This document shows, one piece after another, positions 2,204 to 49,828 of a DNA stretch of 64,000 nucleotides. The notes under the pieces are model-generated. The model saw only the letters and a list, made by a program, of their open reading frames with translations, was not told the DNA's origin and did no database searches. The position numbers and the translations under genes are program-made. The stretch's first letter is position 1, and every line of letters starts with the position of its first letter. Source of the DNA: Escherichia phage UE-S1; the sequence record ON568341.1; one strand, written 5' to 3'.

Positions 2204-2208
2204 AATAT

Positions 2209-2589: not shown

Positions 2590-2601
2590 GAAAAATAAAT
2601 G

Positions 2602-2629: not shown

Positions 2630-2694
2630 AAGCATCAGACATAAAGTTTTCAAGCGGCACAAGATGTGAGTTTGAAAAAAATAAAAAAAAGTGA

Positions 2695-2892: not shown

Positions 2893-4218
2893 ATGACTAC
2901 TCAAAACGATATCCTGAATGTTAAACTGACTCCAAAGAAAGCTAAAGAAGCAATGGCACTAGCTGACATGATTCAAGATAGCCTGATGATTTGGGGTAGC
3001 CCAGGTATCGGTAAGTCTGCAATTGCTCGTCAATACGCTGATGAAAATTACCCTCTGCGTAAAGATAACGAAGCTAAAATCGAGTTCATGAAACAACAAA
3101 TTGAAGCTGACCCTGAAAATGCTGATCAGCTACGCCGTGAACTGGCTGCATTTGAAGCTAAACTAATCGACCAAGATACTAACTTCATCGATTTCCGTTT
3201 GTCTCAAATTGAACCAAGTGACCTCCGTGGTATCCCTGTACCAGAGAAGCTTTTCCGTAAAACTGACGGTTCTCTTCTCAAAGAATCTGAGCTTGCTGAA
3301 GCAAAAGATTATGTTGCTGAAACTGCTGTAGTTTGGGCTGCACCTAAAGTGCTGAAATTGCCAGAAGATTGGAAAGGGGTTATTCTGTTTGACGAAATTA
3401 ACTCTGCAATGCCAATTGTTCAGGCAGCGTCTTATCAGCTAATCCTCGACCGTTGTGTTGGTGAGATGAAGCTACCTAAAACTGCACTGATTCTTGCAGC
3501 AGGTAACCGTGAAACTGATGGCGGTGTAACGTTCTCACTGGCTACACCACTACGTGACCGTATGACACACATTGAGATGATTCCTTATCATCAAGATTGG
3601 ATTAACGATTATGCAATTGGTAAACGTTTGAACCCAGCAACTGTTGCGTTCATCAACAACACAGGTTCTAAGTACTTTAACACTCTTAGCCCACAAGATC
3701 CTTCTCACAGTGGTGGTACTTCTCCACGTTCATGGGAAGCTGTAGCACGCTACGAAGATCTCAAGAAAACTAAGACAATTGATAAAGAAGTGTTCCGTGC
3801 AATGATTGCTGGGCGTGTAGGTGAAGGTGTAGCAACTGAATACATTGAGTACGTTGATAACGTTGCTAAACTACCAGATACTATGTCTATTCTGTCTGGT
3901 GAAATCAAAGATATCGATGCAACTCTTGATATTTCTGCGAATTATTTTATTACTTTGAACTTGGTTTATAAAATTATCGACCTGTTCAATGAGAAGCAAG
4001 AACAACGTCTACCAGTGGAAGAATGGGGTAAACTGTGCAACAACTTCATTACCTTCCTTGACCATAACTTCTCTGCAACTCAAGCAGAACTGGCAGTTCT
4101 GGCAATTCGCACCATTACGCTTCATAAGGTTGCGATTTCCATTAAAGATGTACCAGCGTTTAAAGATTTTATCGCTAAGTACTCTGAACTAGTTCGTAAA
4201 GCACGCTCTCTTGGGTAA
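2893..4218 (+). CDS. MoxR-like (AAA_5 / CobS-like) AAA+ ATPase
   Basis: Walker A GSPGIGKS, Walker B ILFDEIN, later AAGNRE motif; AAGGAAA ribosome-binding site. Confidence 0.8.
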   Translation: MTTQNDILNVKLTPKKAKEAMALADMIQDSLMIWGSPGIGKSAIARQYADENYPLRKDNEAKIEFMKQQIEADPENADQLRRELAAFEAKLIDQDTNFIDFRLSQIEPSDLRGIPVPEKLFRKTDGSLLKESELAEAKDYVAETAVVWAAPKVLKLPEDWKGVILFDEINSAMPIVQAASYQLILDRCVGEMKLPKTALILAAGNRETDGGVTFSLATPLRDRMTHIEMIPYHQDWINDYAIGKRLNPATVAFINNTGSKYFNTLSPQDPSHSGGTSPRSWEAVARYEDLKKTKTIDKEVFRAMIAGRVGEGVATEYIEYVDNVAKLPDTMSILSGEIKDIDATLDISANYFITLNLVYKIIDLFNEKQEQRLPVEEWGKLCNNFITFLDHNFSATQAELAVLAIRTITLHKVAISIKDVPAFKDFIAKYSELVRKARSLG

Positions 4219-22532: not shown

Positions 22533-23141
22533 ATGAAATTAGAAGCAGAACAACCAAAACTATTCGTTAAAGGTCATGTACTAATTACCGACGTTACTGA
22601 TCCATCAAATCAAAAGGTCGTTTTAGATAAATCTAACGCTATTCACCCAGAAAATATGAGTACTGCAATTGCTAATGCGTTAGCATATAATCAAGATAGC
22701 ACAAGTATTCCTATTGGTTCGATTAGCGAGATGCGTTTTGGTAATGGTGGTACGGTAGTGTTAAGTACTGGTCGTGTCACTTACAAAAAACCACGTGTCA
22801 CTTCATTTGGTGGTTTGTATTCACAAACATATTTGAAAAAAATTAACCCTAGAATCACCGCTGGCATTGATTCACAATATAATAATATAACAACCGTGCA
22901 TATCCCAGGACAATCATATACGGACATTGTGTGCATTTGTACTCTTGGTTTAGGTGAACCATCAGACCAAGGTGTAAGTTCAGGTACAAGTATGGATGGA
23001 ACTTATGTATTTGACGAATTGGGTCTATATACTGATGGTGATAGCGGTATTCCGTTGACACATATCATTTTTCACCCAGTTGAGAAAAGTGCAAATCGTG
23101 TGTTGCAAATTAAATACACAGTTCGTGTACAACTACAATAA
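22533..23141 (+). CDS. Hypothetical protein
   Basis: 202-aa ORF with AAGGA ribosome-binding site. Confidence 0.5.
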   Translation: MKLEAEQPKLFVKGHVLITDVTDPSNQKVVLDKSNAIHPENMSTAIANALAYNQDSTSIPIGSISEMRFGNGGTVVLSTGRVTYKKPRVTSFGGLYSQTYLKKINPRITAGIDSQYNNITTVHIPGQSYTDIVCICTLGLGEPSDQGVSSGTSMDGTYVFDELGLYTDGDSGIPLTHIIFHPVEKSANRVLQIKYTVRVQLQ

Positions 23142-23153
23142 TGGGGTCAAATA

Positions 23154-24254
23154 ATGAGTGTAAGTTATACAATTTATAGAAGTAATGGTAGTGTTTATGC
23201 TACTATTCCAAATAATGTTATTCTGGGACCAAATCAACCAGGAAGCAACCCAGTTCCGTTAAATTTCGTTGGTAGGAATAAAGTAAGTTATGGACAAGCA
23301 TGGAATGAAAACTTTTTACATTTAGTTGAGAATTTCAGTTCAGCTTCTGCTCCACGCGGGAACGTCAATGGACAACTTTGGTACAGAAATGCTGGCAGTA
23401 CTGGCGAATTGTTGATATCATTGGTAGATAATGCCAGACAACCATCAGATATTGTAAGTGAAGCTGAGTGGGCTTCTATTCCCATGATTACAGTGTTCAA
23501 TACTGTACCTGACGGTGAAAATAGCGTCATGGGTCGCATGGTATTAACTAGTAATGGTGATTCACTTCGTGTATTAATGAAAAATAAAGAATGGCGTGAA
23601 ATTCAAACATCACGCCCAGAGAACAAAGAATATACATCATTATTGGATATTAACTATGACGATGGAAAAAAATACATTGAGTTCACACAAAATAATAGTA
23701 CCAAACCCATCGCATATTTTAACTTAGGTGGTACTTCACAAGTAGATACCAATAACTGGACAACCTTAACTAATGGTACTGGTGTATTTGAATTCGGTAG
23801 TAACTATTTTTATGAATTGAAAATTATGATTAGAGAGGTAAACGATTCATCTGGTGAAATTGTCTCAGTTCCATACAACTCAAAAACATTTTTTATTAAA
23901 GGACAATTTTATGTAGATAATCAAGGAACTTTTGTTCCTGGTTCAGTGGGGGCAAGCCAAATGCCAGATCCACGTAGAATTACTCAGCTAGAATCAATCA
24001 AGGACGTTATCACCAGTAGTCGTCAAAACTGGGATGTGAATATTGTTATTAATGGTGTAGATCCATCTCTACCTAATCCTAATGGTACATCCAAAGCAGA
24101 CTATGAAAGCTGGGTTATCAACTCACTAAACTCAAATAAAAACTTAGGTTTTCGAGTAGATGGAAGCATTGGTAATCTTTCTCCAGGTGAATCTGTGAAG
24201 CTACAAGCATCAGTACTATTAAATATTACAGGTATTCCAATTATTGGTGTATAA
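23154..24254 (+). CDS. Hypothetical protein
   Basis: 366-aa ORF, Asn/Ser/Gly-rich, tightly packed after the previous gene. Confidence 0.5.
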   Translation: MSVSYTIYRSNGSVYATIPNNVILGPNQPGSNPVPLNFVGRNKVSYGQAWNENFLHLVENFSSASAPRGNVNGQLWYRNAGSTGELLISLVDNARQPSDIVSEAEWASIPMITVFNTVPDGENSVMGRMVLTSNGDSLRVLMKNKEWREIQTSRPENKEYTSLLDINYDDGKKYIEFTQNNSTKPIAYFNLGGTSQVDTNNWTTLTNGTGVFEFGSNYFYELKIMIREVNDSSGEIVSVPYNSKTFFIKGQFYVDNQGTFVPGSVGASQMPDPRRITQLESIKDVITSSRQNWDVNIVINGVDPSLPNPNGTSKADYESWVINSLNSNKNLGFRVDGSIGNLSPGESVKLQASVLLNITGIPIIGV

Positions 24255-27662: not shown

Positions 27663-27703
27663 GTTTATTAATTAGAGTGACGGTGAATCACATAGGAGAA
27701 TAC

Positions 27704-29992
27704 ATGAATCTTACTCAATTGTTCAAAAAAAGCGACGAACTGGCAACATCTCTCGGTCATACATTCTTGACTATTGACCATGTGAGTGCTACAGTACTAA
27801 CCATTGATAGCATCAAGAACGTGTTTGAAGATATGAATATTGATGCAGACAAATTGCATAATCGCTTGATGGACTATCTTAAAAATACATCGGTTCCACA
27901 TGCACCAAAAAGTACAAAAGATGAAGATGCCAATCGTACTTCACTACTAGTAAATCGTGTCGTACATGAGCTTTCAAAAAAATCTGTCATTGAACAACTA
28001 AAAACTGATGATTTTTCGATTGATGCATATTTTGTACTATTTGAATGCTTGTCTTTCCCAAACACTGCACTTGAAGCTGCATTGAAAGAAGAAGGTGTTA
28101 GTTGTACTGAGGCGGCTCGTGCACTACAGAAACATGTTGAGACACTTAATAAGGGTATCAACCTACAAAGCATTAATGATGAACCTACTGGAGATAAAAA
28201 AGTGGCTCAACCACAGCAATCATCTAAACAAAAAGGGTTAGAAGACTACACCACGAATCTAACCGCTCTTGCAAAAGAAGGAAAATTAGATCCGATGATT
28301 GGTCGCCAAAAAGAACTGCGTGCACTGATTGAGACACTCGCTCGTAAAACTAAAAAGAATGCAATTCTTACTGGTGAAGCTGGTGTAGGTAAAACACAAA
28401 TCATTGATGGACTGGCTCAAGCCATCGCTGATGGTAATGTACCTGAACACCTGAAAAATGTTGAAATTCTTTCACTAAATGTTGGTGCATTGACTGCTGG
28501 TACAAAGTACCGTGGTGAGTTTGAAGAACGCATCGATAATTTACTAAAAGAACTAAAGAAACGCGAAAATACTATTGTTTTCATTGATGAAATTCATATT
28601 ATGGTTGGTGCAGGTTCTGCAAGTAATGGCTCTATGGATATGAGCAATATGCTAAAACCAGCACTTTCACGTGGTGAGATTCGTGTGATTGGTGCAACAA
28701 CATACGAAGAATATCGCAAAAATATCGAAAAAGATAGTGCATTAACTCGTCGTTTTATGAAAATTGACGTAGTTGAGCCGACAATTGATGAAACTCGTGC
28801 AATTGTTAATGGGTTAAAGCCAACTTATGAAAAATTCCATAATGTTGAGTTTACATCCGATGCAATGGATGCTGTAATTTCTCTCAGTGATAAATTCCTG
28901 AAGAATAAACACTTCCCTGATAAAGCAATTGACCTAATGGATGCTGCTGCTGCCAAAGTTCGCTCACGTGACAATAATAGTAAGCTTATTACTGCAAGCT
29001 TGGTTCAAGAAGTGGTTGCTGGTATTGCAAACTTAGATATCAATGTGGTTGCATGTACCGAAAGTGAACGTATGCGTAATCTTCCAGATGCACTTCGTTC
29101 ACGTGTATATGGTCAAGATGAGGCTATTCAAAAATTAGTAGATAACGTAATGGTTGCTCGTGCGGGACTACGTGATAAATCAAGTGTTCAGGGTGCATTT
29201 ATGTTCGTTGGTCCATCTGGAACTGGTAAAACTGAAATCACCAAAGCATTAGCTGATGCAACTGGTTCTGAACTTATTCGTTTTGATATGTCAGAGTTTT
29301 CACAAGAACATACAGTATCTAAACTTATCGGTTCACCTCCAGGGTATGTTGGTCATGATTCTGGTAACGGATTACTGCTAGATAAGATCGAACAGTTTCC
29401 GAATGCAGTACTGTTACTTGATGAAATCGAAAAAGCAGATCGTAAAGTACTACTAACCTTCCTACAGGTTCTGGATGAAGGTCGTTTGACTGGTTCACAA
29501 GGAAAAACTGTATATTTTAATAACGTAACTGTTATTATGACTACAAACCTTGGTGCGGCAGATTCAACCAAACGTAGTATTGGTATGAGTGGTAGTGAAA
29601 CTGCTCAAGATAAAGCAATCAAAGCATTTTTACCACCTGAATTCATTAACCGTATTGATAGTATCGTTACGTTTAATGAACTAAGCAGTGAAGCGATTGA
29701 TAGCATCATTGATAAATTTATTGGAAGCTTAAATGACCAAGTAAAAAGCCGTAATGTAAAAGTTACTCTTACAAAAGCAGCACGTGAATGGTTGGCACAA
29801 AATGGTGTACAGGCTGGTATGGGTGCACGACCAATGAAGCGTACAATTGAACAAAACATTCGTGTCCCACTAGCGAAAGAAATGCTGTGTGGAACGCTAG
29901 TGAATGGTGGTAACATCACATTTGATGTTATTAATGGTAAAATTGGTATCAAACCAAAACGTACCAGAACAGTTGAAAAATCACTAGCCTAA
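27704..29992 (+). CDS. ClpA/ClpB-like double AAA+ ATPase (unfoldase); start moved to the ATG with an AGGAGAA ribosome-binding site
   Basis: Two P-loops (GEAGVGKTQ; GPSGTGKTE), two Walker B sites (IVFIDEIH; [10 protein letters not shown]), Clp-N-like N-terminus; the track start at 27677 is a GTG. Confidence 0.8.
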
Positions 29993-30027
29993 AAAAGAAA
30001 AGGAGAGCATATTGCTCTCCTTTTTTA
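29992..30027. terminator. Bidirectional rho-independent terminator
   Basis: A-tract, AGGAGAGCA-tatt-GCTCTCC hairpin, T6. Confidence 0.65.
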
Positions 30028-33000
30028 TTATTTAACTAACAATATATTCTTAATATCATTCCCACTTACTCGTAGGCTATTAGTATACATTGAAAGGTCT
30101 ATTATGTAACTATTTTGAGTATAATGTTTAAATTTATCATAACTACCCAAATTAATACCATTAAAAGAATATGTAGTATTAAGTTTAAAATCATGCTCAG
30201 CACTATACATTACTCCACGGAGCAAATTATTTGCATTTCTGACTTCAACTTTTTCATATCCAATCGATATAATGTCATTCTTGTTAGCAGAAGAACTTAC
30301 TAACACATTATTTCTAACATTATAAGGACTTACTGATATAGGTTGTGCAACATACGTTGTATTTTCTTCACTGATAGTTGTTATGTTAGTGATAGTACCA
30401 CCGACAACACCTATATATATATCGTCAACCATTGGATATCCATAAACCCATATACCTTCATTGTTTTTGAATGGTTTGATAACATTCGCATCATATTCAA
30501 TTACGTTAATTTCTAAACAATCAGGCATTTTAGTTCTTACCAACTCACTAAGAACACCAGCCCCAGTAATTGGTAGGTTATACCCATTATCTATAGTAAT
30601 TCCATCGTCATTAAATATTTCGTTCGATACAATCCACACATCAACATCATCAGGTGTCATTCCGTCATTATACTTACCACCATTTAAAGTAGTATCATAA
30701 AAAACGTCATAATTGATCACATCAATAGTGTAATTTCGGTTTTGTTCATATAATTTAATATCATCTTTGACAAATTCTGAGTCAGAAAATGTTCTAACAC
30801 GAACGATGTTCAATGCAAGAGGCTGTACTGGCTCATTTTGTTGTGCAAGTGTGATATTATCATAACGAAGAACCGCACCAGAAGTATCAACTAATTCAAT
30901 CGTTTCCTTACCAGTAGTTCTTACTGTGAAAAGGATAGGAGTTGTATTATGTTTGATCTTAGATACACGCAATATGGTTTCCCATTTATGGTTTTGATAT
31001 CTTATAAAGTCTTCACCATCAGGAGTGAAAATCATCACCTTATCACCATCAGATAGGTCATTGTCAACAATTTCTGCTTCAGTCAAGCTATTAATAGATC
31101 TCACACGATAAAAATATTTTTCATCAAACGGTGCTGATTTTTTATTAATATCATTTTCAATCTTAGCATATGAAGGAATACTAACAATTGCTTCTGTGTG
31201 TTTATATGGATTTATAATTGCCATACCTTCAGTTTTATATCTACTATTATTACGCAATTGCACCAGTGACACGTTATCAAACCCATATCCATCAACAGTA
31301 AATCTAATATGTCCAACATCACGTCCAGATGGATTTATATCAGATATGTCAATAATATAAGGATCAACTTCATCGTCTTTAACTTCCCATTTTATGGTAG
31401 AAGTTTGTGATTCTAATGCAAGGTTATCAAATGCATTCATATCATTAAAGTACTTAGCTTCAGAAATACTTTTAAGTATATATTGATAGTTTGAATACAT
31501 TGGGTTATTTGTATCTTGTGGTAAATCATCAAGATTTATTTCCGCAAGTTCAACCATTTCACCATTTGTAATAAAATAATCTTCCATGAAATCATCAATA
31601 CTTCTGTTATCTGGTATACTTTGATATACACCATTAACATTTAAGTACACATATTTCCTTGGCATCATAGTAATAGCATAGATATCAATTGGTGTTTTTG
31701 AAAGAATTTCTTCCGCTTTTTCATACTTGTCGGTAGCATCTTTGTCAAACAATCCTCTCATACCAGCTAATACATGAACTGCATCTGAATAGAAACGCGT
31801 ATCTCCACCAACTTCGTCATAACGATAAACGTATACACCATATTCAACTTCTAGTTTTACTTTAATATCATAGTCTGATGCATCAGGATGTTCATCTTTA
31901 ATTAAAGAAATATATTTTTCATATAATTCTTTGCTTATTTCAAAATACCCATAGTTATAATCATTACTAGAAGAAAAACCTAATGGAAGTCTGGTGTTTG
32001 GATTATCATTGTAAGTCAAACCACTGAATCCACAACCAACGGCATCATGAATTTTATCATCACTGATATCTTTATAAAGTTTCAATCGGTTGGCTAATGT
32101 GTTATACTGAACATATTGTCTAAGGTCAGTAAACATTTCATTATGTGTTGATTCTTTATAAACGCGTTCTAACGTAGCTGTAAATTTATCAGTAGCTTCT
32201 AAATCATCTGCATGTTCTTTATACCACTTGTTTACACCATGTGCAGTTCCAAGTGTTACATCCAATTCTGGATAGTAGATTTGCATTAGATAAGCATTAA
32301 CAAGGTCAAACGAATTTTCATTATATTCTGGGAAAGAATATATGTAACGTTGTAATTCATAGTTATTAACAGAGTCTTTTTCATTGGTTTGATATTTTTT
32401 ATTAACATTAATTAAATCATTAATGTTTGCCAAATCTTCATTTGGTTTACATTGAATGTTATCATAATGCATAATAATATCAATTTCTTGGAATCTTCTA
32501 TGTGGGGAAATAAAATCACTAGGTAGTGCACCAACTTGTTCCCATTTTTTAGTAACTTCATTATATTGTGCGTACTCGTAATCCCAAATATCTTTTTCAG
32601 TTTTAATCCAAGAACCATCAACGAAAATATACCCATTAGGATCTAAATCGTTACAAAGACCTTTTATTAAATCATCATCAGATGTTTTTTGTTCTATTTG
32701 TGAACGAATTTTAGTTCTATAAGGTTTAACCTCTTCAAAGTACTCAACAATTTGATTAATCAAATTGTCATTTGAGTAATTTTGTACTAAAGATTGTTCC
32801 AAACCAACAATATAGATATAGGAAGTTTTAAATACCCAATCTACAACACTTTGTTCAACGTGAACATATTTTACCATATCAAAAACAATTTCACTTTGAT
32901 GTAAATCGAAAGAATGTTTGAGTAATGCTAGTGCTTTACGAACATTTATTTCACGATTACTAAGGGAACCGTTTTCATTATGAATACTATAGTCTGCATA

Positions 33001-36000
33001 AATCAAATCATTAAGTTCAATAGTGCTATGTTGACGACCAATAGCTTTCCAATAAATTGAATCACGCGATTGTGCTTTGATATACAACGTCCAAATATTT
33101 TCACTATCCGTAACTCTGATGATATCACCAACTTGATAATTTTTAGTATTTGCTTCTTCTAAACTAGTCTCTTGAATATAAGCTGTTTTGCTATCATACC
33201 CAACGTCATACCAATCAGCATACGACCAGTACTGAGTCATATCTAATGATGTTCCAAGTGATTCGACATAATCACTTTGCTTAATCATTTTATGTTGTCC
33301 CTCACCTTTATTTTCTAAAGTTATAGTAACAACATTTCCTGTATTGGCTGGGCTGTTCATTAACTGAATATATCCATTTTCATCAAAGTGAATGAAATAA
33401 ACTGCACTAGTGGATAAAGGATTTGGTAGATAACCACTGGAACTTAAAATAACAGCGTCATTTTCTTTAAATTTATCCTGCTCGACTGCAATCACTAATT
33501 CATTATTATAAGACAATACACGGAAAGAAACCTCATTAGGGTTAACTTCTGTTGTTTTGACATTAAACACATCTTCCATAACAACACTATTAGTGGTTAT
33601 GTTTTGTGATCTATAATAATTATTTGCACTTTCTACAAAGTTTCTTCGTGCATCAATTACATTCTGGAACCAGGTTTTATTGGAGCCTATACCATTATCA
33701 ACATCTGGATATAATAAATTTATCACCGAACCTGACTTGGTTGTTTCTTGTCCTATTAGTGAGTTCCACATTGAATCCCAAATTAATGGATTAAAGTTAT
33801 AGCTTTCACCCTCTTTACACAGTTGGTATTGATCATGTTTAACAACTTCAGTACTGTCCATATAGTAAGAAATAGTCAAAACACTAGTGTCATCATTGAC
33901 TTTAAACTGCATATTACTAAGGATAAAGGAGTTTTCATTAATTGGTGCAAACCAAGGAATGTTTAACTGTGATGGATCTTTAATAATACGTGCAATATCA
34001 GTACATGATTTAGTTCTGGTATGTAAAGGTGGTACATAAATTGTATCACGTACCCAGAAATAGTATTTTGTCACATAACTGTCAGTTGAGCTATCATATT
34101 CCAAAAATGTACTATAATTATCTTCAAGTGCAGTTCCGCTTGGAAGATACATATTATTATTTTTGTTTTTCTTAGCAACATCTTTACAGTACTTATCCCA
34201 GTTATATGGTTCTACTGGCGAGCATACCCACTCCAATACATCAATAGTGCTATGTGGCAACAAACGCCCCCAGTTGTATCGTTTGTATTCATTAGTAGCG
34301 TCAATATCAACATTACCATCTGCGTCATAAATGGCACGAGTATAATCCAAATAAAATGCAGTGCTTGTGTTCCACCATACTTGACCTACTTTATCTGCAC
34401 CCCAAGCTTGGACTAATTCACCATTACTATTATATTGTGCAGGGTCAATTGGTGAAGTATATGTCACGTTTTGCATAGCTGCACCTGGAATAACACCATT
34501 AATTGGGTCATAAACGTTTAGATATAATGCAGTAATATTTGTACGTTCATCATACGTTGTTGGTCGTTCAAATAGAGTGCTCTGTGGTGCTTTAAAGCTA
34601 TATTTTTTGTCAATATATTCTTGACGTTTATCAGCACTAGTGAATCGTGACACATAACGATACAAACGTGGACGAGTAGCCGGATCAGTAAATTCAATAT
34701 TAATTGAAGTATCAAATGGAACTACCATAACTTTAGGATCTTCGCCAGCAGTGTAATATTGACTTTCTACAGTTAAGGTATCTGGCATAAAATTCGTTTC
34801 ATCAACAAAATAATAATAATCGCCATCTTCAAGTGGGATTTTATCAGTCAATGTTACTTTACAGAATTGTTCAGCGTAAATATCGGTATTTTCGATTGGT
34901 GTTATAGAAACCATTTGCACATTAGTGTCAACTAATTCAAAAATGTTCCACAAACCATTACCATCTTTAAACATCCAAACTGATTCAGGATTTTCACCTT
35001 TACCATTAACATAAGAAATGCGGTCGTTATATGCAGTACTGAAATCTTTAGTAGTGTAAGATACTTCATCTAAGGTAACTGGACCAATATCAGGAAGTTG
35101 AATGTGTTCACTTCTCCCACTACGCATTGGAAATGAAAATTTTCCATTCGGGCGTGTAATCCAACGTGGGTCTTTACCTTGATCACCAAAATATACAACA
35201 TTATTACCAGTACCATTTGAAGTTGCATTTTCATCAAAAGACACCATTTGTGGTTGTTGTTTAAATTGGTCATTAATTAATTTAAATTGAAGATTTTTCT
35301 TACCATCAATATTACCATATGTACCAATTTTAAATGCCCATTCTTGTAATGCTTTATACTCATCAGTGTCATATGATTTAGAAACACGCAAAACACGTTC
35401 TAAAACTTGGTTAGTACCTTTATCATGAATAAATCCTTTATAAAAATCAACACGACTAACATCGCTACTAATCATACGTTGTAGATAATCACGGGATTGA
35501 TAGCCAATTAAATGACTAGACAATTCTTGTAATTGTACATCGCTTACTGGACTTTCATTATCATAGTAATGTTGGAAATCAGTTACTAATGTTTCAAATG
35601 AAGGAATTGTACCAGATTCTAATATAATAAAACCAGGTGCTTGTAATCTTCCAGTCCATGAACCAGTAATATAACCGTACATTTTGATTAGTTCCTGAAT
35701 AGAACCATATGTTGGTTGATAGATGTAATCACCAAAAATAGTTTTATCATCAAATATAACCGCATGTTCATATGAACACAAACTTAAACGAAGTAATGCA
35801 ATACGTTTATTAGAATCTAATGTTCTAACAGTGAAAATATTACCAATACGAGAAGTTTCGATTTCATACTGACGAATACCTTGGTTATTATCGTCAAGTA
35901 GTGACCATACTCCACCATTATTTTGTGTAATAGACTGAACTGAACCAAAATCTGAACCAAATTTTGCATTTGCTGCACTTGGTGTACAAGATATAAATTC

Positions 36001-39000
36001 ACCAGTTATAAGAGAATTCTGACTCCACATCACAAAATCTTTAGCAATAGTGTTCCAATCTTGTTGAACGCCGCCATCATTTACATCTTCGAAGATCCAT
36101 CCATGTTCTTTAAGATACTCCCCATAACCACAAATAAAAGTATAGACTTCTTGGTAACTGTTAAGAACTGTTCCATATTCAATAGAAGCCTCAGACTTCC
36201 ATTCATTGTAATGGACAACATTACGGTTTTCTAATTTAAGAGTTACTTTTCGACCATTTTTCACTGGGAGTTTATATTTAAATTTAGCCCCAACCAAGTC
36301 ATATCCATCTATTTGATATGCACTACCATTCCAGGTAATTTTGATAGCACTCATCTGTTCATCACGAATATTATTTGAACGTACAAGTCCAATTGTTTGG
36401 TTTTCTTGTGAAATCAACCCAAATGATTTAGCATTGAATGTTAGTTGGTCTGCTTTAGTAAATCCTCCAATTTTATGTCCTACATTTACATTAGAAGAAC
36501 GAACAACATCACCATATTTTGTAGTAATGTTTTTATTTTGATACATCAAATAATCACTAACGAACATTTGATACCCAATTGTTCTTGTGTTATTTTCACC
36601 ATGAACAGTGGTTTTTTTATCAAAATTGATACGATTACGGGTATCCCCATAAAGAAATTGTTCACCACCAGTGAATATTTCTTTTAAATTATCATTTCGG
36701 GTGTCCCAAAAATAGTTTGCGAATTGTGCTGGTTTAGCTTTATACAATAGCATCATTTGGTCATATGCAAATAATGTGGTATTCATGTAAGTAAATTCCA
36801 TGTCACCCATATCACCATATGCCCAAGGTTCGGCTCTATGATTTAAAGAACCAGATACTAAACCTAAAATCTCAGGGGCAATATACTCAACAACACAAAT
36901 ATCCACTCCAGAGGATGTTTTATTTCCAGTTTTTGTAATTTTAAATGGTTGTACACCAAATCTTCTATATTTGTCATACTGACCACGGCGGTCACCAGAT
37001 AAAATTGTACCAGTACTACTATCCCCGATAGTATCATTAATATTCCACAGACCACTAGGAACTAAATCACCTTGTTCATCAGTGACAAGTGCTTCATATA
37101 CATATACAACATCACCATCACGTTCACCAACTTGAACAGCAGTTGGTTCATATTCTTGATTCCACCAAGTAGGACGTTGTGTAAATCCAAACATTTCCCA
37201 TGGATGTGTTGCTGGACGATATGTACCATATTGGTCAGTATAGATTGCACGCCACGAACCACGAGCAGGAATTTCAGTACTTTTACCATTGACCATATAA
37301 TAGGTTCCAGTGTAGTTCCATGTTCTCCAGTTACTGGGATCATAATCATGTGTACTATTACTAATACCATTGGATGCTGTAAAGTTAATATAACCACGCA
37401 ATAAAAGTGTTTGTTTCTCTTCCGCACTATATTCAGTTTTTGTAAAATATGGTGTAGGGAAAAGGTCATCACTATTCAATACTGGAACATAATCAACATC
37501 TTTGAATTTATTATCAATACTATTAAAAATTCTATTTTCTAACTCATAAACAACATCATCCATTTTATCAACACCATTAATTACACGGTATGCTTTTGAA
37601 ATAATACCAGTATGACTAATGTTATAAAAGCTTGGTTTACTACCAGCAGTTAGAAATGTAGCTTTCTCAGGAACATATGCTTGTAAAATACCCAAAAACT
37701 GTGGTGTTGGTGGTATAAATGCACGAACAAGTCCAGATGTGCTTCCTACATTATCATAATAGAACGGGAATGAGCTGTCGCGTCCCATATTGATAGTAGT
37801 TAAAATAGAATCAACAATATTTGCTGCACTATTTTGTAAAAAGTTAGATGGATTTTCATTATACATACGAAGCATTTGAGTATTAAATTTATTAATGAAT
37901 CGGAAATATTCAGATTGCATAAACATAGTTGCTTCAAATAAATCAATATCTTCATTTGCGGTATGAGCCATCAATGGAAGCATAGAAGCTTCATTTTGAA
38001 TAATTTTAGTTCCTACTCCATTATTCACTAATCCCTTAGCTAAACGTTCTTCATAATCGTTGAAGTCATCAGCATAACCACTAGTGATATTCTGTTGAAT
38101 AATATCCTGAAAATGTAGAGTATAGTCTCCTTGATTAATATATATAATATTGGAGTTATATGGGTTATTTTGTAAGTTAATCGGAACTTCATATGCACCT
38201 AATTCTTTATCAGGTGTTACGGTTCTACTATAAGTTCTAATTTGAATAACAGAATCATCATCTAAATCTACCGAACTATCAAGTGTGATGCTTTGTACTT
38301 GGCCTTTTGATACATTCTTTGTATATTTTGATACATTAACACCATCGACATTAACTTCAATAATATCAGAATCATTATCTAAAACTTTTTGAGCTAATTC
38401 AAACGTATGATCATATTTTAAAATCTGAATACCATCACCACTAATCTGATGCCAGTCCAAATAAGTTTCACGTTCTGCTTTATAGTACTGATATGTTCTA
38501 TCAACTTCAATAACATATGCATACATACCATCAACAGGTTCTTTGAACACTTCCATGTCATATACAGTACTGAATACTCGATACATGTCAGTGCGTTGGA
38601 CCTGTGGAGTTTGTTTTACATATTGTTTAGAGTATTCGTTTGAACGAACCCAATCAGTTTTTAGATTCATTTTATTATTTTCATCAATAATGTTATAATA
38701 ATACAATCCACCAATTTCAACTTCAACACCAAGATGATCATATGTATAACGTTGTGATTGCAAAAAGTTTTCATAGGTGTAATAGTTATAATCACCAAGT
38801 TCAATGTTATACCCATATACACTATCAGTAGCGTAATTATAATTTATTTTAAAACCAAATAATTGTGAACCTTTAAAGTTACTGGATGGGTATGTTGTAC
38901 TATTATCTAGTTTAATCCCATTGCGATCATAAAGTTGGAATTTTGGGAAGACGTTAACACTAGGTTTAGACTGTGCACGAACCCACAAATTACCATTCCA

Positions 39001-40023
39001 AAACATAGAACTATTACCATATTCATTACCTTTGGTAATTAAAACAACATCTCCATCCTGTGGTTCACCACTTGGACGAGATTCTGATTCTTCATCGGGG
39101 TCTAGTGCTAAGCCATAAACACGTGTACCATCTTGCATTTTTTTAACATATACTTTATAAATCCTATTGTTTTCACCATCGTTACCAATACTAGTGAATA
39201 GAATACGCATACCATCTTGTGGAATAATACCATCAATACGAATACCACTATTGACATCTTTTTGGATAATATCTTCAGGTTTAATATTATCAGAAAAAAG
39301 TTCAACTGTACCACGGAATTTCGTACCGTAGTTAATTAGCTCAATGTTTTTATTATATTCAATAATTGGTGCACGAGCACGAATAAAACGAGCATCTTGC
39401 ATTAATTCTTCGGTCAAGATTGAACCATCTTCCAGTGTCTCACCTAAAGTATACCAAAAGTTTTGTAATGACCAAGTATTACCATTAAGTGCACCACGTT
39501 CCATGACAATGTAGTCAGGAGTAGTAATATTATAAGAGTTTTTTGTATCCCAAAGATATGAGCTAAAATTATTCATTTTATTTGGGTTAATTGCAGGTGT
39601 CCATGCGTAAAACTTACCGTTAAATAAGCGACTTTCATTATCGGTTAGTGCTCCATAATGACTCATGTACCCAACCAGATCATCATAAAATTGAATTGAA
39701 CGAATAGTCGAATCATCATTTTTAGAGACGTAAGCAGTGGACAACTGATATAGTTGTCGAGCAACAGTACTTTCGTGTAAAAAGATATTACCAGCAGCGG
39801 CTGGAGAACCCATATCACCAATATAACCGTCAACTAATTCGTTTTCAGCCGGATTAAACCATTGTTGAATAACATCATCACTGACTTTCTGAATATCTTC
39901 TAAGCCTTGCATCCACTCAGGCAATCTTTTAATAAAAAGCTTTTTCTGTACTGCTTCAGCCATCTGTGTAGGTTGAAACTTAAAATTATTAGTCATTTTC
40001 TGGACTCCATATAATTCGTTCAT
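30028..40023 (-). CDS. Giant (3331-aa) virion protein at the position of a gp7 / gpI-like baseplate wedge component
   Basis: Uninterrupted ~10-kb ORF; sits directly downstream of the gp6/J-like gene in the conserved spike, W, J, I order. Confidence 0.65.
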   Translation of the reverse strand: MNELYGVQKMTNNFKFQPTQMAEAVQKKLFIKRLPEWMQGLEDIQKVSDDVIQQWFNPAENELVDGYIGDMGSPAAAGNIFLHESTVARQLYQLSTAYVSKNDDSTIRSIQFYDDLVGYMSHYGALTDNESRLFNGKFYAWTPAINPNKMNNFSSYLWDTKNSYNITTPDYIVMERGALNGNTWSLQNFWYTLGETLEDGSILTEELMQDARFIRARAPIIEYNKNIELINYGTKFRGTVELFSDNIKPEDIIQKDVNSGIRIDGIIPQDGMRILFTSIGNDGENNRIYKVYVKKMQDGTRVYGLALDPDEESESRPSGEPQDGDVVLITKGNEYGNSSMFWNGNLWVRAQSKPSVNVFPKFQLYDRNGIKLDNSTTYPSSNFKGSQLFGFKINYNYATDSVYGYNIELGDYNYYTYENFLQSQRYTYDHLGVEVEIGGLYYYNIIDENNKMNLKTDWVRSNEYSKQYVKQTPQVQRTDMYRVFSTVYDMEVFKEPVDGMYAYVIEVDRTYQYYKAERETYLDWHQISGDGIQILKYDHTFELAQKVLDNDSDIIEVNVDGVNVSKYTKNVSKGQVQSITLDSSVDLDDDSVIQIRTYSRTVTPDKELGAYEVPINLQNNPYNSNIIYINQGDYTLHFQDIIQQNITSGYADDFNDYEERLAKGLVNNGVGTKIIQNEASMLPLMAHTANEDIDLFEATMFMQSEYFRFINKFNTQMLRMYNENPSNFLQNSAANIVDSILTTINMGRDSSFPFYYDNVGSTSGLVRAFIPPTPQFLGILQAYVPEKATFLTAGSKPSFYNISHTGIISKAYRVINGVDKMDDVVYELENRIFNSIDNKFKDVDYVPVLNSDDLFPTPYFTKTEYSAEEKQTLLLRGYINFTASNGISNSTHDYDPSNWRTWNYTGTYYMVNGKSTEIPARGSWRAIYTDQYGTYRPATHPWEMFGFTQRPTWWNQEYEPTAVQVGERDGDVVYVYEALVTDEQGDLVPSGLWNINDTIGDSSTGTILSGDRRGQYDKYRRFGVQPFKITKTGNKTSSGVDICVVEYIAPEILGLVSGSLNHRAEPWAYGDMGDMEFTYMNTTLFAYDQMMLLYKAKPAQFANYFWDTRNDNLKEIFTGGEQFLYGDTRNRINFDKKTTVHGENNTRTIGYQMFVSDYLMYQNKNITTKYGDVVRSSNVNVGHKIGGFTKADQLTFNAKSFGLISQENQTIGLVRSNNIRDEQMSAIKITWNGSAYQIDGYDLVGAKFKYKLPVKNGRKVTLKLENRNVVHYNEWKSEASIEYGTVLNSYQEVYTFICGYGEYLKEHGWIFEDVNDGGVQQDWNTIAKDFVMWSQNSLITGEFISCTPSAANAKFGSDFGSVQSITQNNGGVWSLLDDNNQGIRQYEIETSRIGNIFTVRTLDSNKRIALLRLSLCSYEHAVIFDDKTIFGDYIYQPTYGSIQELIKMYGYITGSWTGRLQAPGFIILESGTIPSFETLVTDFQHYYDNESPVSDVQLQELSSHLIGYQSRDYLQRMISSDVSRVDFYKGFIHDKGTNQVLERVLRVSKSYDTDEYKALQEWAFKIGTYGNIDGKKNLQFKLINDQFKQQPQMVSFDENATSNGTGNNVVYFGDQGKDPRWITRPNGKFSFPMRSGRSEHIQLPDIGPVTLDEVSYTTKDFSTAYNDRISYVNGKGENPESVWMFKDGNGLWNIFELVDTNVQMVSITPIENTDIYAEQFCKVTLTDKIPLEDGDYYYFVDETNFMPDTLTVESQYYTAGEDPKVMVVPFDTSINIEFTDPATRPRLYRYVSRFTSADKRQEYIDKKYSFKAPQSTLFERPTTYDERTNITALYLNVYDPINGVIPGAAMQNVTYTSPIDPAQYNSNGELVQAWGADKVGQVWWNTSTAFYLDYTRAIYDADGNVDIDATNEYKRYNWGRLLPHSTIDVLEWVCSPVEPYNWDKYCKDVAKKNKNNNMYLPSGTALEDNYSTFLEYDSSTDSYVTKYYFWVRDTIYVPPLHTRTKSCTDIARIIKDPSQLNIPWFAPINENSFILSNMQFKVNDDTSVLTISYYMDSTEVVKHDQYQLCKEGESYNFNPLIWDSMWNSLIGQETTKSGSVINLLYPDVDNGIGSNKTWFQNVIDARRNFVESANNYYRSQNITTNSVVMEDVFNVKTTEVNPNEVSFRVLSYNNELVIAVEQDKFKENDAVILSSSGYLPNPLSTSAVYFIHFDENGYIQLMNSPANTGNVVTITLENKGEGQHKMIKQSDYVESLGTSLDMTQYWSYADWYDVGYDSKTAYIQETSLEEANTKNYQVGDIIRVTDSENIWTLYIKAQSRDSIYWKAIGRQHSTIELNDLIYADYSIHNENGSLSNREINVRKALALLKHSFDLHQSEIVFDMVKYVHVEQSVVDWVFKTSYIYIVGLEQSLVQNYSNDNLINQIVEYFEEVKPYRTKIRSQIEQKTSDDDLIKGLCNDLDPNGYIFVDGSWIKTEKDIWDYEYAQYNEVTKKWEQVGALPSDFISPHRRFQEIDIIMHYDNIQCKPNEDLANINDLINVNKKYQTNEKDSVNNYELQRYIYSFPEYNENSFDLVNAYLMQIYYPELDVTLGTAHGVNKWYKEHADDLEATDKFTATLERVYKESTHNEMFTDLRQYVQYNTLANRLKLYKDISDDKIHDAVGCGFSGLTYNDNPNTRLPLGFSSSNDYNYGYFEISKELYEKYISLIKDEHPDASDYDIKVKLEVEYGVYVYRYDEVGGDTRFYSDAVHVLAGMRGLFDKDATDKYEKAEEILSKTPIDIYAITMMPRKYVYLNVNGVYQSIPDNRSIDDFMEDYFITNGEMVELAEINLDDLPQDTNNPMYSNYQYILKSISEAKYFNDMNAFDNLALESQTSTIKWEVKDDEVDPYIIDISDINPSGRDVGHIRFTVDGYGFDNVSLVQLRNNSRYKTEGMAIINPYKHTEAIVSIPSYAKIENDINKKSAPFDEKYFYRVRSINSLTEAEIVDNDLSDGDKVMIFTPDGEDFIRYQNHKWETILRVSKIKHNTTPILFTVRTTGKETIELVDTSGAVLRYDNITLAQQNEPVQPLALNIVRVRTFSDSEFVKDDIKLYEQNRNYTIDVINYDVFYDTTLNGGKYNDGMTPDDVDVWIVSNEIFNDDGITIDNGYNLPITGAGVLSELVRTKMPDCLEINVIEYDANVIKPFKNNEGIWVYGYPMVDDIYIGVVGGTITNITTISEENTTYVAQPISVSPYNVRNNVLVSSSANKNDIISIGYEKVEVRNANNLLRGVMYSAEHDFKLNTTYSFNGINLGSYDKFKHYTQNSYIIDLSMYTNSLRVSGNDIKNILLVK

Positions 40024-40043: not shown

Positions 40044-40070
40044 ATAAAAAAGGCGTTCCGAAGAACGCCA
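40044..40070 (-). terminator. Rho-independent terminator
   Basis: GGCGTTC-cgaa-GAACGCC hairpin followed on the minus strand by T6. Confidence 0.6.
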
Positions 40071-43540: not shown

Positions 43541-43604
43541 AATTTATTCCTTTAAATCAGTAAAGTACTAGTTCAGTACTGGGAATTATATAGAAATATT
43601 TATT

Positions 43605-43637
43605 CAAAAAGAAAAGCACTCAGAAGAGTGCTTTTTC
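43605..43637 (-). terminator. Rho-independent terminator
   Basis: AGCACTC-agaa-GAGTGCT hairpin flanked by A/T tracts. Confidence 0.55.
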
Positions 43638-43641
43638 TTAG

Positions 43642-44037
43642 TTATAAAGACGATACAGAATATGTTGCCATTCTATTATTACTTCTTGCATCAAAGACTA
43701 TAGAAAGTTCTTCTACCGTATTCAATACAACGTATTGTAATACGATATTCATTTGGTATCCATATTCAATTCTTGAAATTTGTATGTTTTTAAGATTTAA
43801 GCGTGGATCTAAGCTAATAATCCTACGTGCATCTGCTTCTAAAAGGTTAATAGTATTATATCCTTCCAATTCAAACAACAAATCCCATGCAATAAACCCA
43901 TAGTCTGCATCGAATGCTCTTTCGCCTTTTTTTGTATTAAAATGATTCATCAAATCCTGACGAACCAATTCATTATCATACAACGTTTCAGTTCTACCCA
44001 CAACTGGTGTAGAGAAACCTTTGAAAACAACTGCCAT
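43642..44037 (-). CDS. Baseplate wedge protein, gp25 / GPW-like
   Basis: 131 aa; GxxxRxFDADYGFxxWDLLFE pattern typical of the gp25/W family; sits between the spike-lysozyme and gp6-like genes. Confidence 0.6.
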   Translation of the reverse strand: MAVVFKGFSTPVVGRTETLYDNELVRQDLMNHFNTKKGERAFDADYGFIAWDLLFELEGYNTINLLEADARRIISLDPRLNLKNIQISRIEYGYQMNIVLQYVVLNTVEELSIVFDARSNNRMATYSVSSL

Positions 44038-44050: not shown

Positions 44051-44539
44051 TTATACGGATTCGACGATACGTGCCATCTTTTCCGCTCTAGAAGTGGTTT
44101 GTTTATACCATGTACTATCACGCAATTCTTTACCAGCAGTTTTATAATCAGCTTTACCTAATGCGGACATTGCTTTTTTGAATTTCAAAACTTTGGTTTT
44201 ACCCATTTGGAATACCATCATCCACAATACACGTTGTACCTGTACTGGTGCTGTCATACCAAACTGTTCATAAATGGATTTTGCGTCATTGTACGCAGTT
44301 TGAGCATCTTTAATAAGAAGTTGGTCTGCTTGTTCTTCAGTTAAACCATTTTTGAAGTTCTCGTTGGGAAGAACTAAATGACCATAACCAATAGTATCAA
44401 GTCCGAGGCTATCTTTATATACCCAAAACTTATCATTTTTAAAATATCCAAGTTTTTTTTGATAAGAAATTGTACCTTCAAACTCTTTAATTTCTTTAAA
44501 AAACTGCTCATCTGTATTTTTAATTTCCCATTTACTCAT
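44051..44539 (-). CDS. Glycoside hydrolase family 24 lysozyme (T4 lysozyme-like), free-standing
   Basis: T4-lysozyme-like catalytic triad positions (E in KEFEG, D in KDSLG, T in DTIGYGH) and MVFQMG motif. Confidence 0.85.
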   Translation of the reverse strand: MSKWEIKNTDEQFFKEIKEFEGTISYQKKLGYFKNDKFWVYKDSLGLDTIGYGHLVLPNENFKNGLTEEQADQLLIKDAQTAYNDAKSIYEQFGMTAPVQVQRVLWMMVFQMGKTKVLKFKKAMSALGKADYKTAGKELRDSTWYKQTTSRAEKMARIVESV

Positions 44540-44575: not shown

Positions 44576-47239
44576 TTATTGACATGCCTCCAAACGTCGA
44601 GCCATTAACTCAGCACGGCGTGTCGTTTGGCGATACCAAGCCGAATTACGGATTTGTGCTGCTGCTTGTTTATAATTTCCTTTCGCTAATTCAGATAACA
44701 TTGTTTTAAATTTAAGAACTCCACCTTTGCCCATTTGAAATACCATTTGACATAGAACTTGCTGTGCCATATAAGGAGTTTTCATGTTATATGATGCATA
44801 AATTGATTTAGCATCATAAATTGCTTTACTACTATCACGAACAAGCATATCATTTGCTTGTTGTTCAGTTATACCAGAAGAAAAGTTTTCGCCATTCACG
44901 ATTAAATGACCGTAACCAATAGTTGGGTAGCCACGACTATCCAAATAACGCCAGAATTTACCATTTCGATAATACCCTTTTGCTTGTTGATATTGCATAG
45001 TACCCTCATATTCCTTTAATTCGGAAATAAATTGAGAATCACCTGGGACAATTTTCCAATCTATTGCAGTTTTATCTACATTACCGACATTATATGTTGG
45101 TTGTACAACTGGTGTAGATGATACACCACTTCTCTGTGTTCTTCTTTTACGAGGTACATGTCGTGAGCCACGCTGTGAATAACCAGTACCAATTGTTTTA
45201 ATTTTGGTAGTAACGACCAATTCATCACTATCAACGGATGGTTGTACTACTGCTTGCGGTGAAGATTGATTTGTTGCTTGACCTGCAATCAATGTTTTAT
45301 TAGCTGCATCTGCACCAATACCAGTTTGTGATGCATAAAATAATCCTGGGTCAACTGAACCACTAAAGCCGAGGACGTTAGCTGACGTTACACGTATTTC
45401 AAATTGCATAACACCATTTGCTTTACCAATGACCTGTCCCTTTTGAACTACATCCTTGTTTAGTAAATTCGTTTGAATATTATAAAATATAGATTTATAA
45501 CCAGATTTATGTTGAATCAAAATCCCACCATTAGTAATTACAACAACACCACCATCTGGTGCAACAACATCTCCTTTACATTGTATTTCCCATCCAGAAC
45601 GGTCAGTCTTTCCTCCATTTTGTGTTGGAATGCCTTTTCCCCAATAGCCGTATTGACGAATGGTCCCACTACACGGCATATACATATGCAAACCTTCATA
45701 TGTAATGCTATACCCAGTCATTCCAGTATCAGATACCATTAAATCTTGTGTTTGAACTTGTTCGGTTTCGGGTGTATAGTTCACAAACTGAATAGCTTCA
45801 GTTTCTTGAGCTTCAGGAATTTCTGGTGTAACATCATTTGCAGGCTGTGGCTGAACAGGGGATTCACTTGAAATCTTCCCCCCACCTTGTCTTGGTGGTT
45901 CAACATAACTACCATGGTTTTTCGCATCAACCCATGAAACAATGTCATGAATGTGTTCATTAAGACCAGCAGATGGTGTTCTGAAATTTGGTGCAGTAAA
46001 TTCAGCAGTACCGCTATTACCACCACTATTAACTGTTAATGTTTGACCTCCACCACTAACAATTGCTGAAGATGAACCAATTAAGTTTGCAGATGTAGAA
46101 GCAGAAATAGACGCATTTGAACCAGCAGTAATATCAGTACTGCTACCACTTTGCATACGTAAGGACGCAGCAGTGACCAGTCGAAGATCAGCACCGGAAT
46201 TAACCACAACTTGTCCACCAACTTTTGCATCAAGAGTTCCAATTAGATCTAATTTAGTATTGGCTCCTACGCGTGCATTAAAATCTTGACCCGTTTCAAT
46301 ATTATATGAACGACCAGCAGTGATGTTAATATCTTGCCCTGCACGAATATTGATATTCTTATCACAGTGCATGTCAATATCCCCTTCACCAGTAAATTTT
46401 ATACGGGCGGTCCCATCACGATTAATTAAAAGTACATCCCCCGTTGCTTCTGATAATAAAAGTTGTGCACCACTACGGGTTTTTATTACAACTCCTTCAT
46501 TTTTACGAGAACCAACACGGGTGTCGTTTACTGGGTTATTGAATTGTGTATCTTGATATCCATCTGGGTCTTGATCCCATGTGGGTGCAGTTAATTCCTC
46601 TTCGGTATAGCCATCATCAATGATGAAACTATTTCCACGTGGGGATGACATCCCATATACAGTACTCGTTGTTTGGCGAGTACTACTTCGGTTAGCAAGG
46701 CCAGCTTCTTCATCATACAAAAGGTTTTGCTTTTTAAGACCAGCAATAATTGGAACATTTGCATATTTGTCTTGCATATCAGTAGTGAGTGTGTTACGAT
46801 CATAGTCAGTAACAGGAAGAGGCATATCTGTTCCGCTATAATTACTAACATCTGTTGCCATACCAGGGACCATAGTATTCATGCGATGGTCATATACACA
46901 ACCAATCCAATACGCTTGAAATGTACGAGCCTGTGCGAAAATCACAACAACAGTGCACCCAACATCAGGCGGCACAGCCCAGAATCCATAACCTTTAGGA
47001 TACTGTCCATAAGCATCTGCACTTGGAATACCTGGTGTTTTACCAGCAAAAGGAGACATATAAGATGCCTCAATCCATGATTCTTTTGAATTTTTATCGC
47101 TTTGTGAACCTTGTATCCAAACTTTTAACTTTCCAGATTTAGTTGGATCTCTATTATCCATAACTGTTGCTAATTGTGGATAAGCTGGGTCAAAACGACC
47201 CAACTGTTGTTGTGCATACTTTTTACTTGTATCTGCCAT
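44576..47239 (-). CDS. Baseplate central spike protein (gp5-like) with M23/LytM-like beta-barrel region and C-terminal GH24 lysozyme domain
   Basis: C-terminal ~160 aa paralogous to the free lysozyme (EYEG, LDSRG, PTIGYGH, MVFQMG); preceding region matches an M23-like pattern (I-H-G-Y-S-Y ... GQVIGKANG). Confidence 0.75.
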   Translation of the reverse strand: MADTSKKYAQQQLGRFDPAYPQLATVMDNRDPTKSGKLKVWIQGSQSDKNSKESWIEASYMSPFAGKTPGIPSADAYGQYPKGYGFWAVPPDVGCTVVVIFAQARTFQAYWIGCVYDHRMNTMVPGMATDVSNYSGTDMPLPVTDYDRNTLTTDMQDKYANVPIIAGLKKQNLLYDEEAGLANRSSTRQTTSTVYGMSSPRGNSFIIDDGYTEEELTAPTWDQDPDGYQDTQFNNPVNDTRVGSRKNEGVVIKTRSGAQLLLSEATGDVLLINRDGTARIKFTGEGDIDMHCDKNINIRAGQDINITAGRSYNIETGQDFNARVGANTKLDLIGTLDAKVGGQVVVNSGADLRLVTAASLRMQSGSSTDITAGSNASISASTSANLIGSSSAIVSGGGQTLTVNSGGNSGTAEFTAPNFRTPSAGLNEHIHDIVSWVDAKNHGSYVEPPRQGGGKISSESPVQPQPANDVTPEIPEAQETEAIQFVNYTPETEQVQTQDLMVSDTGMTGYSITYEGLHMYMPCSGTIRQYGYWGKGIPTQNGGKTDRSGWEIQCKGDVVAPDGGVVVITNGGILIQHKSGYKSIFYNIQTNLLNKDVVQKGQVIGKANGVMQFEIRVTSANVLGFSGSVDPGLFYASQTGIGADAANKTLIAGQATNQSSPQAVVQPSVDSDELVVTTKIKTIGTGYSQRGSRHVPRKRRTQRSGVSSTPVVQPTYNVGNVDKTAIDWKIVPGDSQFISELKEYEGTMQYQQAKGYYRNGKFWRYLDSRGYPTIGYGHLIVNGENFSSGITEQQANDMLVRDSSKAIYDAKSIYASYNMKTPYMAQQVLCQMVFQMGKGGVLKFKTMLSELAKGNYKQAAAQIRNSAWYRQTTRRAELMARRLEACQ

Positions 47240-49513: not shown

Positions 49514-49828
49514 TTAGCCTATGTTTCGAGTACCATTAAGATAGTTTTGTACTCTTTGATTTGCTGGTATTCTAATTGTTACTCCACTTTTAAAATTATA
49601 TATAGGATCTTCTCCTAATATATCTGGATTTAACAATGCAAAAATATAATATAGACGTTCATTGCCATACATCTCGTAGGCTAAACGCCAGGGTTGATAT
49701 TCATACTTCAATGGGATCTCATAAAAATCATCAGTATCAGCAGGAACTATATCTCGTGGTAAATTATAACCAAGATACCAAGATTGTTTCACCTTAGCAT
49801 AAGGTGAGTATTGACTATAGTTGGACAT
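49514..49828 (-). CDS. Small LysM-like domain protein (tail protein X / gp53-like)
   Basis: YEIPLKYEYQPWRLAYEMYGNERLYYIFALLNPDIL...GVTIRIP fits a LysM-like pattern. Confidence 0.4.
   Translation of the reverse strand: MSNYSQYSPYAKVKQSWYLGYNLPRDIVPADTDDFYEIPLKYEYQPWRLAYEMYGNERLYYIFALLNPDILGEDPIYNFKSGVTIRIPANQRVQNYLNGTRNIG

Follow-up and report, generated by a model that had tools for sequence, protein, structure and literature searches.

The 64,000-nucleotide (nt) window analysed here comes from Escherichia phage UE-S1 (sequence record ON568341.1) and carries on its minus strand a single open reading frame (ORF) of 3331 codons. On balance, we favour the interpretation that its giant product is an arm scaffold of the outer baseplate, a single chain of extreme size that is present once per wedge in the position of T4 gp7 and P2 gpI. 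We propose this assignment on the basis of the gene position and of a predicted N-terminus made up of a helix-turn-helix and a small alpha/beta domain. The gene itself is already known and belongs to a catalogued family, PHROG 10938, of jumbo myophages of the RaK2/121Q/PA5oct/Atu_ph07 supergroup; no role or structural assignment for the giant protein was found in the literature searched. Should it prove to be a baseplate scaffold, the protein would represent an extreme and structurally orphan form of a known type.

The ORF listing confirmed the uninterrupted frame of about 10 kb described in the initial annotation. It starts with an ATG, its translation contains no internal stop codon and its G+C content (31–34%) is the same as that of the flanking genes. 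The predicted product has a mass of 383 kDa and a pI of 4.7. By megablast, the window groups with the jumbo myophages of the 121Q/PBECO4 (Asteriusvirus) type, whose genomes measure 350 kb, and all 9996 nt of the ORF were recovered in one collinear piece, with approximately 89% nucleotide identity, from 34 independent phage genomes. At the protein level, identity to the 121Q group was approximately 93%. A tblastn search with the core of the protein retrieved 92 phage records, 72 of which span 80% or more of this region. Among them were RaK2, K64-1, GAP32, CBB, Serratia BF and Yersinia fHe-Yen9 as well as a Vibrio phage, the PA5oct group, SCTP-2 and Atu_ph07, while XacN1, Xoo-sp13 and CM1 gave weaker matches. 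The match to PHROG 10938 (‘virion structural protein’) extends over the full length of the protein (5637 bits, amino acids (aa) 10–3328 against profile positions 1–3324).

The orthologues in 121Q (gp582), PBECO4, phAPEC6 (gp245), RaK2, CBB (CBB_236) and PA5oct (gp128) have the same length, position and neighbours. Two of them were found in purified virions by mass spectrometry, phAPEC6 gp245 (381.9 kDa) with 17 peptides (PMC7247149) and CBB_236 with 21 peptides (PMC5259590), and each is listed next to its own gp6-like wedge protein (PMC7247149, PMC5259590). The CBB study took ‘the largest ORF’ as an anchor in its genome comparisons (PMC5259590). PA5oct gp128 adjoins the wedge gene gp129 and is among the largest proteins of that phage (PMC7318152). 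Because 34 independent genomes carry the frame unbroken and collinear from end to end (100% of its length), it is not an artefact, and an assembly error or a frameshift is excluded. The notion of a chance long frame or a misassembly is also refuted by the peptides detected in orthologues and by the high confidence of the AlphaFold2 models described below.

The gene order around the giant ORF was examined with Pfam and PHROG profiles. On the minus strand, genes for a gp53-like protein, a 749-aa virion protein, the spike, a small lysozyme, a GPW_gp25 protein and a gp6-like protein precede the giant ORF in this order (Table 1). Residues 21–102 of T4 gp6 could be aligned with the gp6-like N-terminus (hhalign, E 1.6e-4), and the earlier description of the module as spike, W and J followed by the I position is therefore correct; the order is constant in every relative examined. 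The large size noted for both proteins also holds, with 3331 codons for the giant ORF and 1153 aa for the gp6-like protein compared with 1032 aa for T4 gp7 and 660 aa for T4 gp6. The gp6-like protein is presumed to be the partner of the giant protein. A trio of genes for gp25, a gp6-like protein (971–1198 aa) and a giant protein is found in 121Q, in XacN1 (giant of 3313 aa) and in Atu_ph07 (giant of 4449 aa), and likewise in four metagenomic lineages, where the giant protein comprises 4876–5394 aa or is split. The giant gene comes directly after the gp6-like gene in every relative examined. None of the other ORFs of the baseplate module resembles gp7 or gpI in the Pfam/PHROG comparison, and BLAST revealed no domain shared between the giant protein and any other ORF of the window.

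To our knowledge, the wedge of every solved contractile system consists of two gp6-like chains and one gp7-like chain. In P2 (J-I) and T4 (6-7) the corresponding genes are adjacent, and a gp7-like chain also follows the gp6-like one in XM1 (gp16-gp17; PMC10457771), in phage 812 (gp116-gp117; PMC13433997) and in the type VI secretion system (TssF-TssG; PMC6300606). An exception to this adjacency appears to be gp87/gp128 of phiKZ. Proteins of the gp7 class comprise 176 aa in P2 (gpI), 242 aa in XM1 (gp17) and 1032 aa in T4 (gp7). Being encoded directly downstream of a gp6/J-like gene, the giant protein shares its place with T4 gp7, P2 gpI, XM1 gp17 and TssG, and the role expected from this place is that of the third wedge chain, which links the wedge to peripheral proteins.

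AlphaFold2 models were computed from small but diverse alignments for aa 1–1200 and aa 1201–2400. The first model was confident, with a predicted local distance difference test score (pLDDT) of 85.9 and a predicted template modelling score (pTM) of 0.80, and the second was fair (pLDDT 77.1, pTM 0.49). Both show globular multi-domain bodies of mixed beta-rich and helical composition, which are not fibrous. At the N-terminus, a helix-turn-helix at aa 20–56, modelled with low pLDDT, is followed by an alpha/beta domain at aa 87–160, a layout that can be compared with the helices and trifurcation domain of gp7-like chains. Distant relatives carry an insertion of approximately 200 aa just after aa 158–169, and because the insertions fall there, we place a domain boundary near aa 165. 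Relative to 121Q, conservation is highest in the first 150 aa, with a single difference.

The predicted N-terminal layout resembles that of the arm scaffold gp117 of Staphylococcus phage 812 (Kayvirus/A511-type). In this phage, the N-terminal 176 aa of gp117, which comprise helices and a trifurcation domain, form the wedge together with two wedge proteins, and the rest of the chain is the scaffold of the baseplate arm, which bears the receptor-binding proteins and has partner-dependent docking elements (PMC13433997). The giant protein shares the gp7 gene position with gp117 and is comparable to it in the predicted layout of its N-terminus; its own domain boundary lies near aa 165. Unlike in 812, where the arms consist of gp117 linkers and separate gp8-like arm segment dimers, the modelled parts of the giant protein are large globular domains. 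The N-terminal layout also parallels domain I of XM1 gp17 (PMC10457771). It is the combination of the gp7-like gene position, this layout, the boundary near aa 165 and the lack of another gp7/gpI-like ORF in the module that leads us to propose an arm scaffold.

Several observations weigh against a gp7/I-like identity. By sequence or profile, the giant protein shows no similarity to T4 gp7, P2 gpI, Pfam Tail_P2_I or TssG; hhalign probabilities were 0.2% for the family profile against T4 gp7 and 0.1% for the N-terminal profile against P2 gpI. The N-terminal domains of XM1 gp16/gp17 and of TssF/TssG are structural paralogues. A comparison of the N-terminal profiles of the giant and the gp6-like protein, made at the sequence level, gave an hhalign probability of 0.08%, with the alignment of the gp6-like protein to T4 gp6 (E 1.6e-4) as a control. 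Furthermore, the modelled N-terminal helices are a guess at low pLDDT, although such low confidence is as expected for helices that need partners. Homology of the giant N-terminus to gp7, gpI or TssG was thus not borne out by profile or fold. Finally, in distant relatives the giant gene is followed by the gene for a conserved protein of approximately 200 aa assigned to PHROG 11259, and it could be this protein that is the actual small gp7/I analogue.

Taken further, this last point gives an alternative that we consider rather unlikely, but which has to be weighed first: the giant protein might be a peripheral baseplate or fibre-platform protein outside a (gp6)2-X trimer, X being a small protein such as that of PHROG 11259 (22533-23141). 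All direct tests of gp7/I homology of the giant N-terminus were negative, as this alternative would have it, and with about 180–217 aa the PHROG 11259 protein has the size of P2 gpI or XM1 gp17. Together with a PHROG 14394 gene, its gene follows the giant gene directly in five distant lineages (loci L002, L003, L006, L007 and L008). However, the PHROG 11259 protein resembles neither P2 gpI nor any sequence in the PDB, and, as judged from its alignment, it has no obvious N-terminal helical segment. Solved systems, moreover, usually have the gp7-like gene right after the gp6-like gene (P2, T4, 812 gp116/gp117, XM1 gp16/gp17), whereas the copy in the window is inverted and lies apart from the wedge genes. 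The PHROG 11259 and PHROG 14394 genes of the window are found approximately 6 kb from the giant gene on the opposite strand, suggesting that this region was inverted or rearranged in the 121Q lineage.

The extent of the conserved part of the giant protein was determined by homology searches. In the first search, 159 proteins were found, all of 3300–5450 aa and collinear with the query over aa ~25–2450. A profile of aa 1–1200 was then searched against 1.84 billion cluster representatives (clusters at 50% identity) and matched 2027 clusters at E<=1e-3 and 1148 at E<=1e-30. Among the best 150 matches, nearly all are giants (median 4070 aa, maximum 6362), and this module forms the N-terminus of the protein in every case. 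Relatives differ by insertions after aa ~160–169, ~767, ~1258 and ~1467 and chiefly at aa ~1733–1804. Distant relatives carry the Pfam domains CBM_5_12, FG-GAP_2, TIG, Big_9 and He_PIG somewhere in the chain. Self-BLAST of the giant protein revealed no internal repeats, so that a repeat expansion is excluded as the origin of its size. The initial annotation had suggested a wedge protein fused to extra domains; for aa ~25–2373 this does not apply, since this region is an ancient collinear core represented in more than 2000 protein clusters and not a recent add-on.

Searches with sequence and structure retrieved the protein's own family. Neither the whole protein nor any of seven tiles of 430–600 aa had a meaningful Pfam match with E values allowed up to 10, and among PDB sequences there was no match at E up to 10 by phmmer or by hmmsearch with a 44-sequence profile. 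Foldseek searches of the models against BFVD matched the own family, including a ‘structural protein’ of Atu_ph07 with template modelling (TM) scores of 0.62–0.83, and this agreement gives independent support to the model of the giant protein. Beyond the family, the BFVD search returned tail-fibre-like matches at TM <0.1, which is noise. In aa 1–2400, no enzyme fold, fibre fold or Pfam domain was retrieved, and no sequence or fold similarity of the giant protein to any solved chain was detectable. Neither repeats, coiled coils or a beta-helix nor fibre or carbohydrate-binding domains, as known from fibres, tailspikes and adhesins, were seen. It is therefore improbable that the protein is mainly an adhesin or a tail fibre-like receptor-binding protein on the baseplate: it lacks repeats and Pfam adhesin or fibre domains, its first 1200 aa are compact and globular (pTM 0.80) without retrieving a fibre fold, its core of 2400 aa is far more conserved than is usual for receptor-binding proteins, and fibres and depolymerases are encoded elsewhere in the phage by genes of their own.

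The segment from aa 1420 to 1559 stands out from the rest of the core. It shows the highest identity of the family to distant relatives, yet its pLDDT is only 26–39 and the alignment in this region is full and clean. No other long part of the core is without a confident monomer fold. Because the combination of top conservation and low pLDDT fits partner-dependent ordering, this segment may be a candidate partner-binding or docking element that is ordered only in the bound state. Invariant charged residues in aa 1387–1561, including E1419, H1420 and D1425, could also be taken as a sign of catalysis, and in being a very large virion protein the giant recalls the N4 virion RNA polymerase. It might accordingly be an enzyme or ejected protein carried in the virion and merely encoded in the baseplate module. 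We regard this as very improbable, as no recognisable catalytic fold or domain was detected in aa 1–2400 by fold or Pfam search, linkage to the gp25 and gp6-like genes is strict across a very deep clade, and the models show a beta-rich multi-domain architecture of a structural kind.

The C-terminal part of the protein behaves differently from the core. A minority of distant relatives are split at aa ~2374 into a core and a second protein: 122 of 146 new representatives run past position 2400 in one chain, and about 5–11 seem to be split there. In the two split loci that were read (L007 and L008), a core gene of 2758 aa or 2278 aa is followed after 63–70 nt by a gene of 1368 aa or 1117 aa, respectively. 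The first ~80 residues of the second protein align with query positions 2375–2450 and with positions 2368–2453 of PHROG 10938, and the split point lies between the predicted helices 2356–2372 and 2376–2390. A split at the motif ‘YFEEVKPY’ was considered and rejected, because BLAST puts the break one helix earlier, at aa ~2373/2375. Since the last ~960 aa are encoded as a separate gene in some distant relatives, they form, as judged from sequence comparison, a separable module that consists of a conserved head of 75 aa and a variable body and is fused to the core in this phage.

Beyond aa ~2450 there is no alignment to distant relatives, and within the close group the C-terminal body is 31–89% identical. 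Compared with 121Q, identity is 89.8% for the C-terminal module and 94.3% for the core, with the greatest divergence at aa 3151–3300. A homology search with the C-terminal 881 aa yielded nothing, which was a false negative, as a relative in the same database is 89% identical there. Because the C-terminal module is variable and separable in relatives, it is probably peripheral, and it may be distal, face the host or dock fibres. Thus, from the proposed fusion of baseplate wedge proteins with fibre, enzymatic or host-interaction domains, the last ~960 aa remain as a fused module; fibre or enzymatic domains were not detected within aa 1–2400, and wedge homology is unproven. In the spacers between the two genes of the split loci, which belong to unrelated metagenomic phages (L007 16278-16340, L008 14829-14898), the sequences AAATA(C/A) and GTAATTGGA are shared upstream of the second ATG and may represent a conserved late promoter and ribosome-binding site.

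If the giant protein is the arm scaffold in the gp7/I position, its N-terminal ~170 aa would combine with a pair of enlarged gp6-like chains into the wedge heterotrimer that surrounds the hub. From there, aa ~170–2373 would extend as a single rigid chain of several domains and make up the outer baseplate, and the segment 1420–1559 would become ordered only on binding of a partner. The last ~960 aa would be an exchangeable distal module; splitting and variability are observed in relatives, and a peripheral or host-facing role would be in keeping with them. Six copies per virion, together approximately 2.3 MDa, would be expected. The outer baseplate region of T4 needs gp7, gp8, gp9, gp10 and gp11. 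As a tentative extension, it is possible that jumbo phages of a very large clade have replaced this layer by a single chain of ~2400 residues with new folds, in which segment 1420–1559 might serve as a docking or trigger element through which fibres or the distal module are coupled to the opening of the wedge and the contraction of the sheath.

A very large outer baseplate is also known from phiKZ, in which the wedge protein gp128 is combined with a platform of gp139, gp27, gp26, gp130 and gp157 (PMC13250141). The giant protein would likewise allow a jumbo phage to surround a conserved wedge core with a fibre platform of very large size. As a scaffold in the gp7 position, one chain of 383 kDa per wedge would stand in place of the many peripheral proteins of T4 and phiKZ, and this would be a different way of building the baseplate of a contractile tail. 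Once solved, the structure of a single family member would provide annotation for very many giant phage proteins now called ‘hypothetical’ (more than 2000 clusters). For expression, the boundary at aa ~2374 is a natural construct boundary, and the C-terminal ~960 aa are the place to seek determinants of fibre attachment and host range in the therapeutic coliphages and Klebsiella phages of the group.

Table 1. Positions of the giant gene, its parts and neighbouring features in the window.
Feature	Position	Strand	Remarks
Maximal ORF	30028..40023	-	3331 codons and stop; end-to-end match to PHROG 10938
Probable real coding sequence from Met10, 3322 aa	30028..39996	-	Start shared with homologues and with the 121Q annotation
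N-terminal module, aa 10-170	39514..39996	-	Predicted helix-turn-helix (aa 20-56, low pLDDT), then alpha/beta domain of small size (aa 87-160)
Conserved multi-domain core, aa 171-2373	32905..39513	-	Mixed beta-rich/helical domains, no repeats, no fold match
Hyperconserved segment, aa 1420-1559	35347..35766	-	Motifs EHAVIFDD..., YGYITGSW.GRL.APGF, FYKGFI.DKGT
Main insertion hotspot, aa ~1733-1804	34612..34827	-	Distant relatives insert ~1000 aa
Conserved head of C-terminal module, aa 2375-2450	32674..32901	-	Begins a protein of its own in split relatives
Clade-specific C-terminal body, aa 2451-3331	30031..32673	-	Fastest-evolving part of the giant protein
Terminator-like hairpin (GGCGTTC-TTCG-GAACGCC and T run)	40052..40069	-	Between the stop codon of the gp6-like gene and the giant gene
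Bidirectional terminator hairpin	29996..30026	.	Directly after the giant stop codon; common to the convergent ClpA/B-like gene
Enlarged gp6/J-like wedge protein, 1153 aa	40079..43540	-	PHROG 10646; PHROG 219 at the N-terminus
gp25/W-like sheath initiator	43642..44037	-	Pfam GPW_gp25, E 8.6e-9
Small lysozyme	44051-44539	-	
gp5-like central spike with lysozyme	44576..47239	-	Pfam Phage_base_V, DUF2345, Phage_lysozyme
Phage_gp53-like gene	49514-49828	-	Pfam Phage_gp53
PHROG 11259 (202 aa) and PHROG 14394 (366 aa) genes	22533..24254	+	In distant relatives, immediately downstream of the giant gene

The translational start and the borders of the giant gene were inspected in the nucleotide sequence. 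Residue 10 of the query is where the alignments of all homologues and the annotated 121Q protein begin; on these grounds the true start is probably Met10 (ATG at 39996-39994) and not the ATG at 40023, which would give a protein of 3322 aa. A GGAG ribosome-binding site is located 8 nt upstream of the Met10 codon (40005-40008). Because terminator-like hairpins are present on both sides, the giant gene may be a late transcription unit of its own. A gene for a ClpA/ClpB-like double AAA+ chaperone of 771 aa (27677-29992, plus strand; Pfam AAA_2, ClpB_D2-small and Clp_N) converges on the giant gene, and its 121Q counterpart (gp581) does the same.

In 121Q, a gene for an HNH endonuclease (‘protein associated with group I intron’; 121Q locus 15717-16481) lies between the gp25 and gp6-like genes. 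The window has no HNH gene at this place, where the two genes are separated by only about 100 nt (43541-43641); there is no other essential difference between the two regions.

Some records of orthologues deviate in their annotation. In the Salmonella phages SD-1_S14 and SD-6_S16 (OR699183.1, OR699182.1), the orthologue is annotated as 3–4 ORFs with approximately 93–95% amino-acid identity; unlike the natural split at aa ~2374, these breaks are probably due to sequencing errors. The orthologue in vB_Pa-PAC2 (PP408249.1) is annotated as a ‘chitin-binding type-3 domain-containing protein’, a label that probably reflects an inserted carbohydrate-binding (CBM) domain. That in EJP2 (OQ411014.1) is called ‘D-alanyl-D-alanine carboxypeptidase’, which looks like a misannotation.

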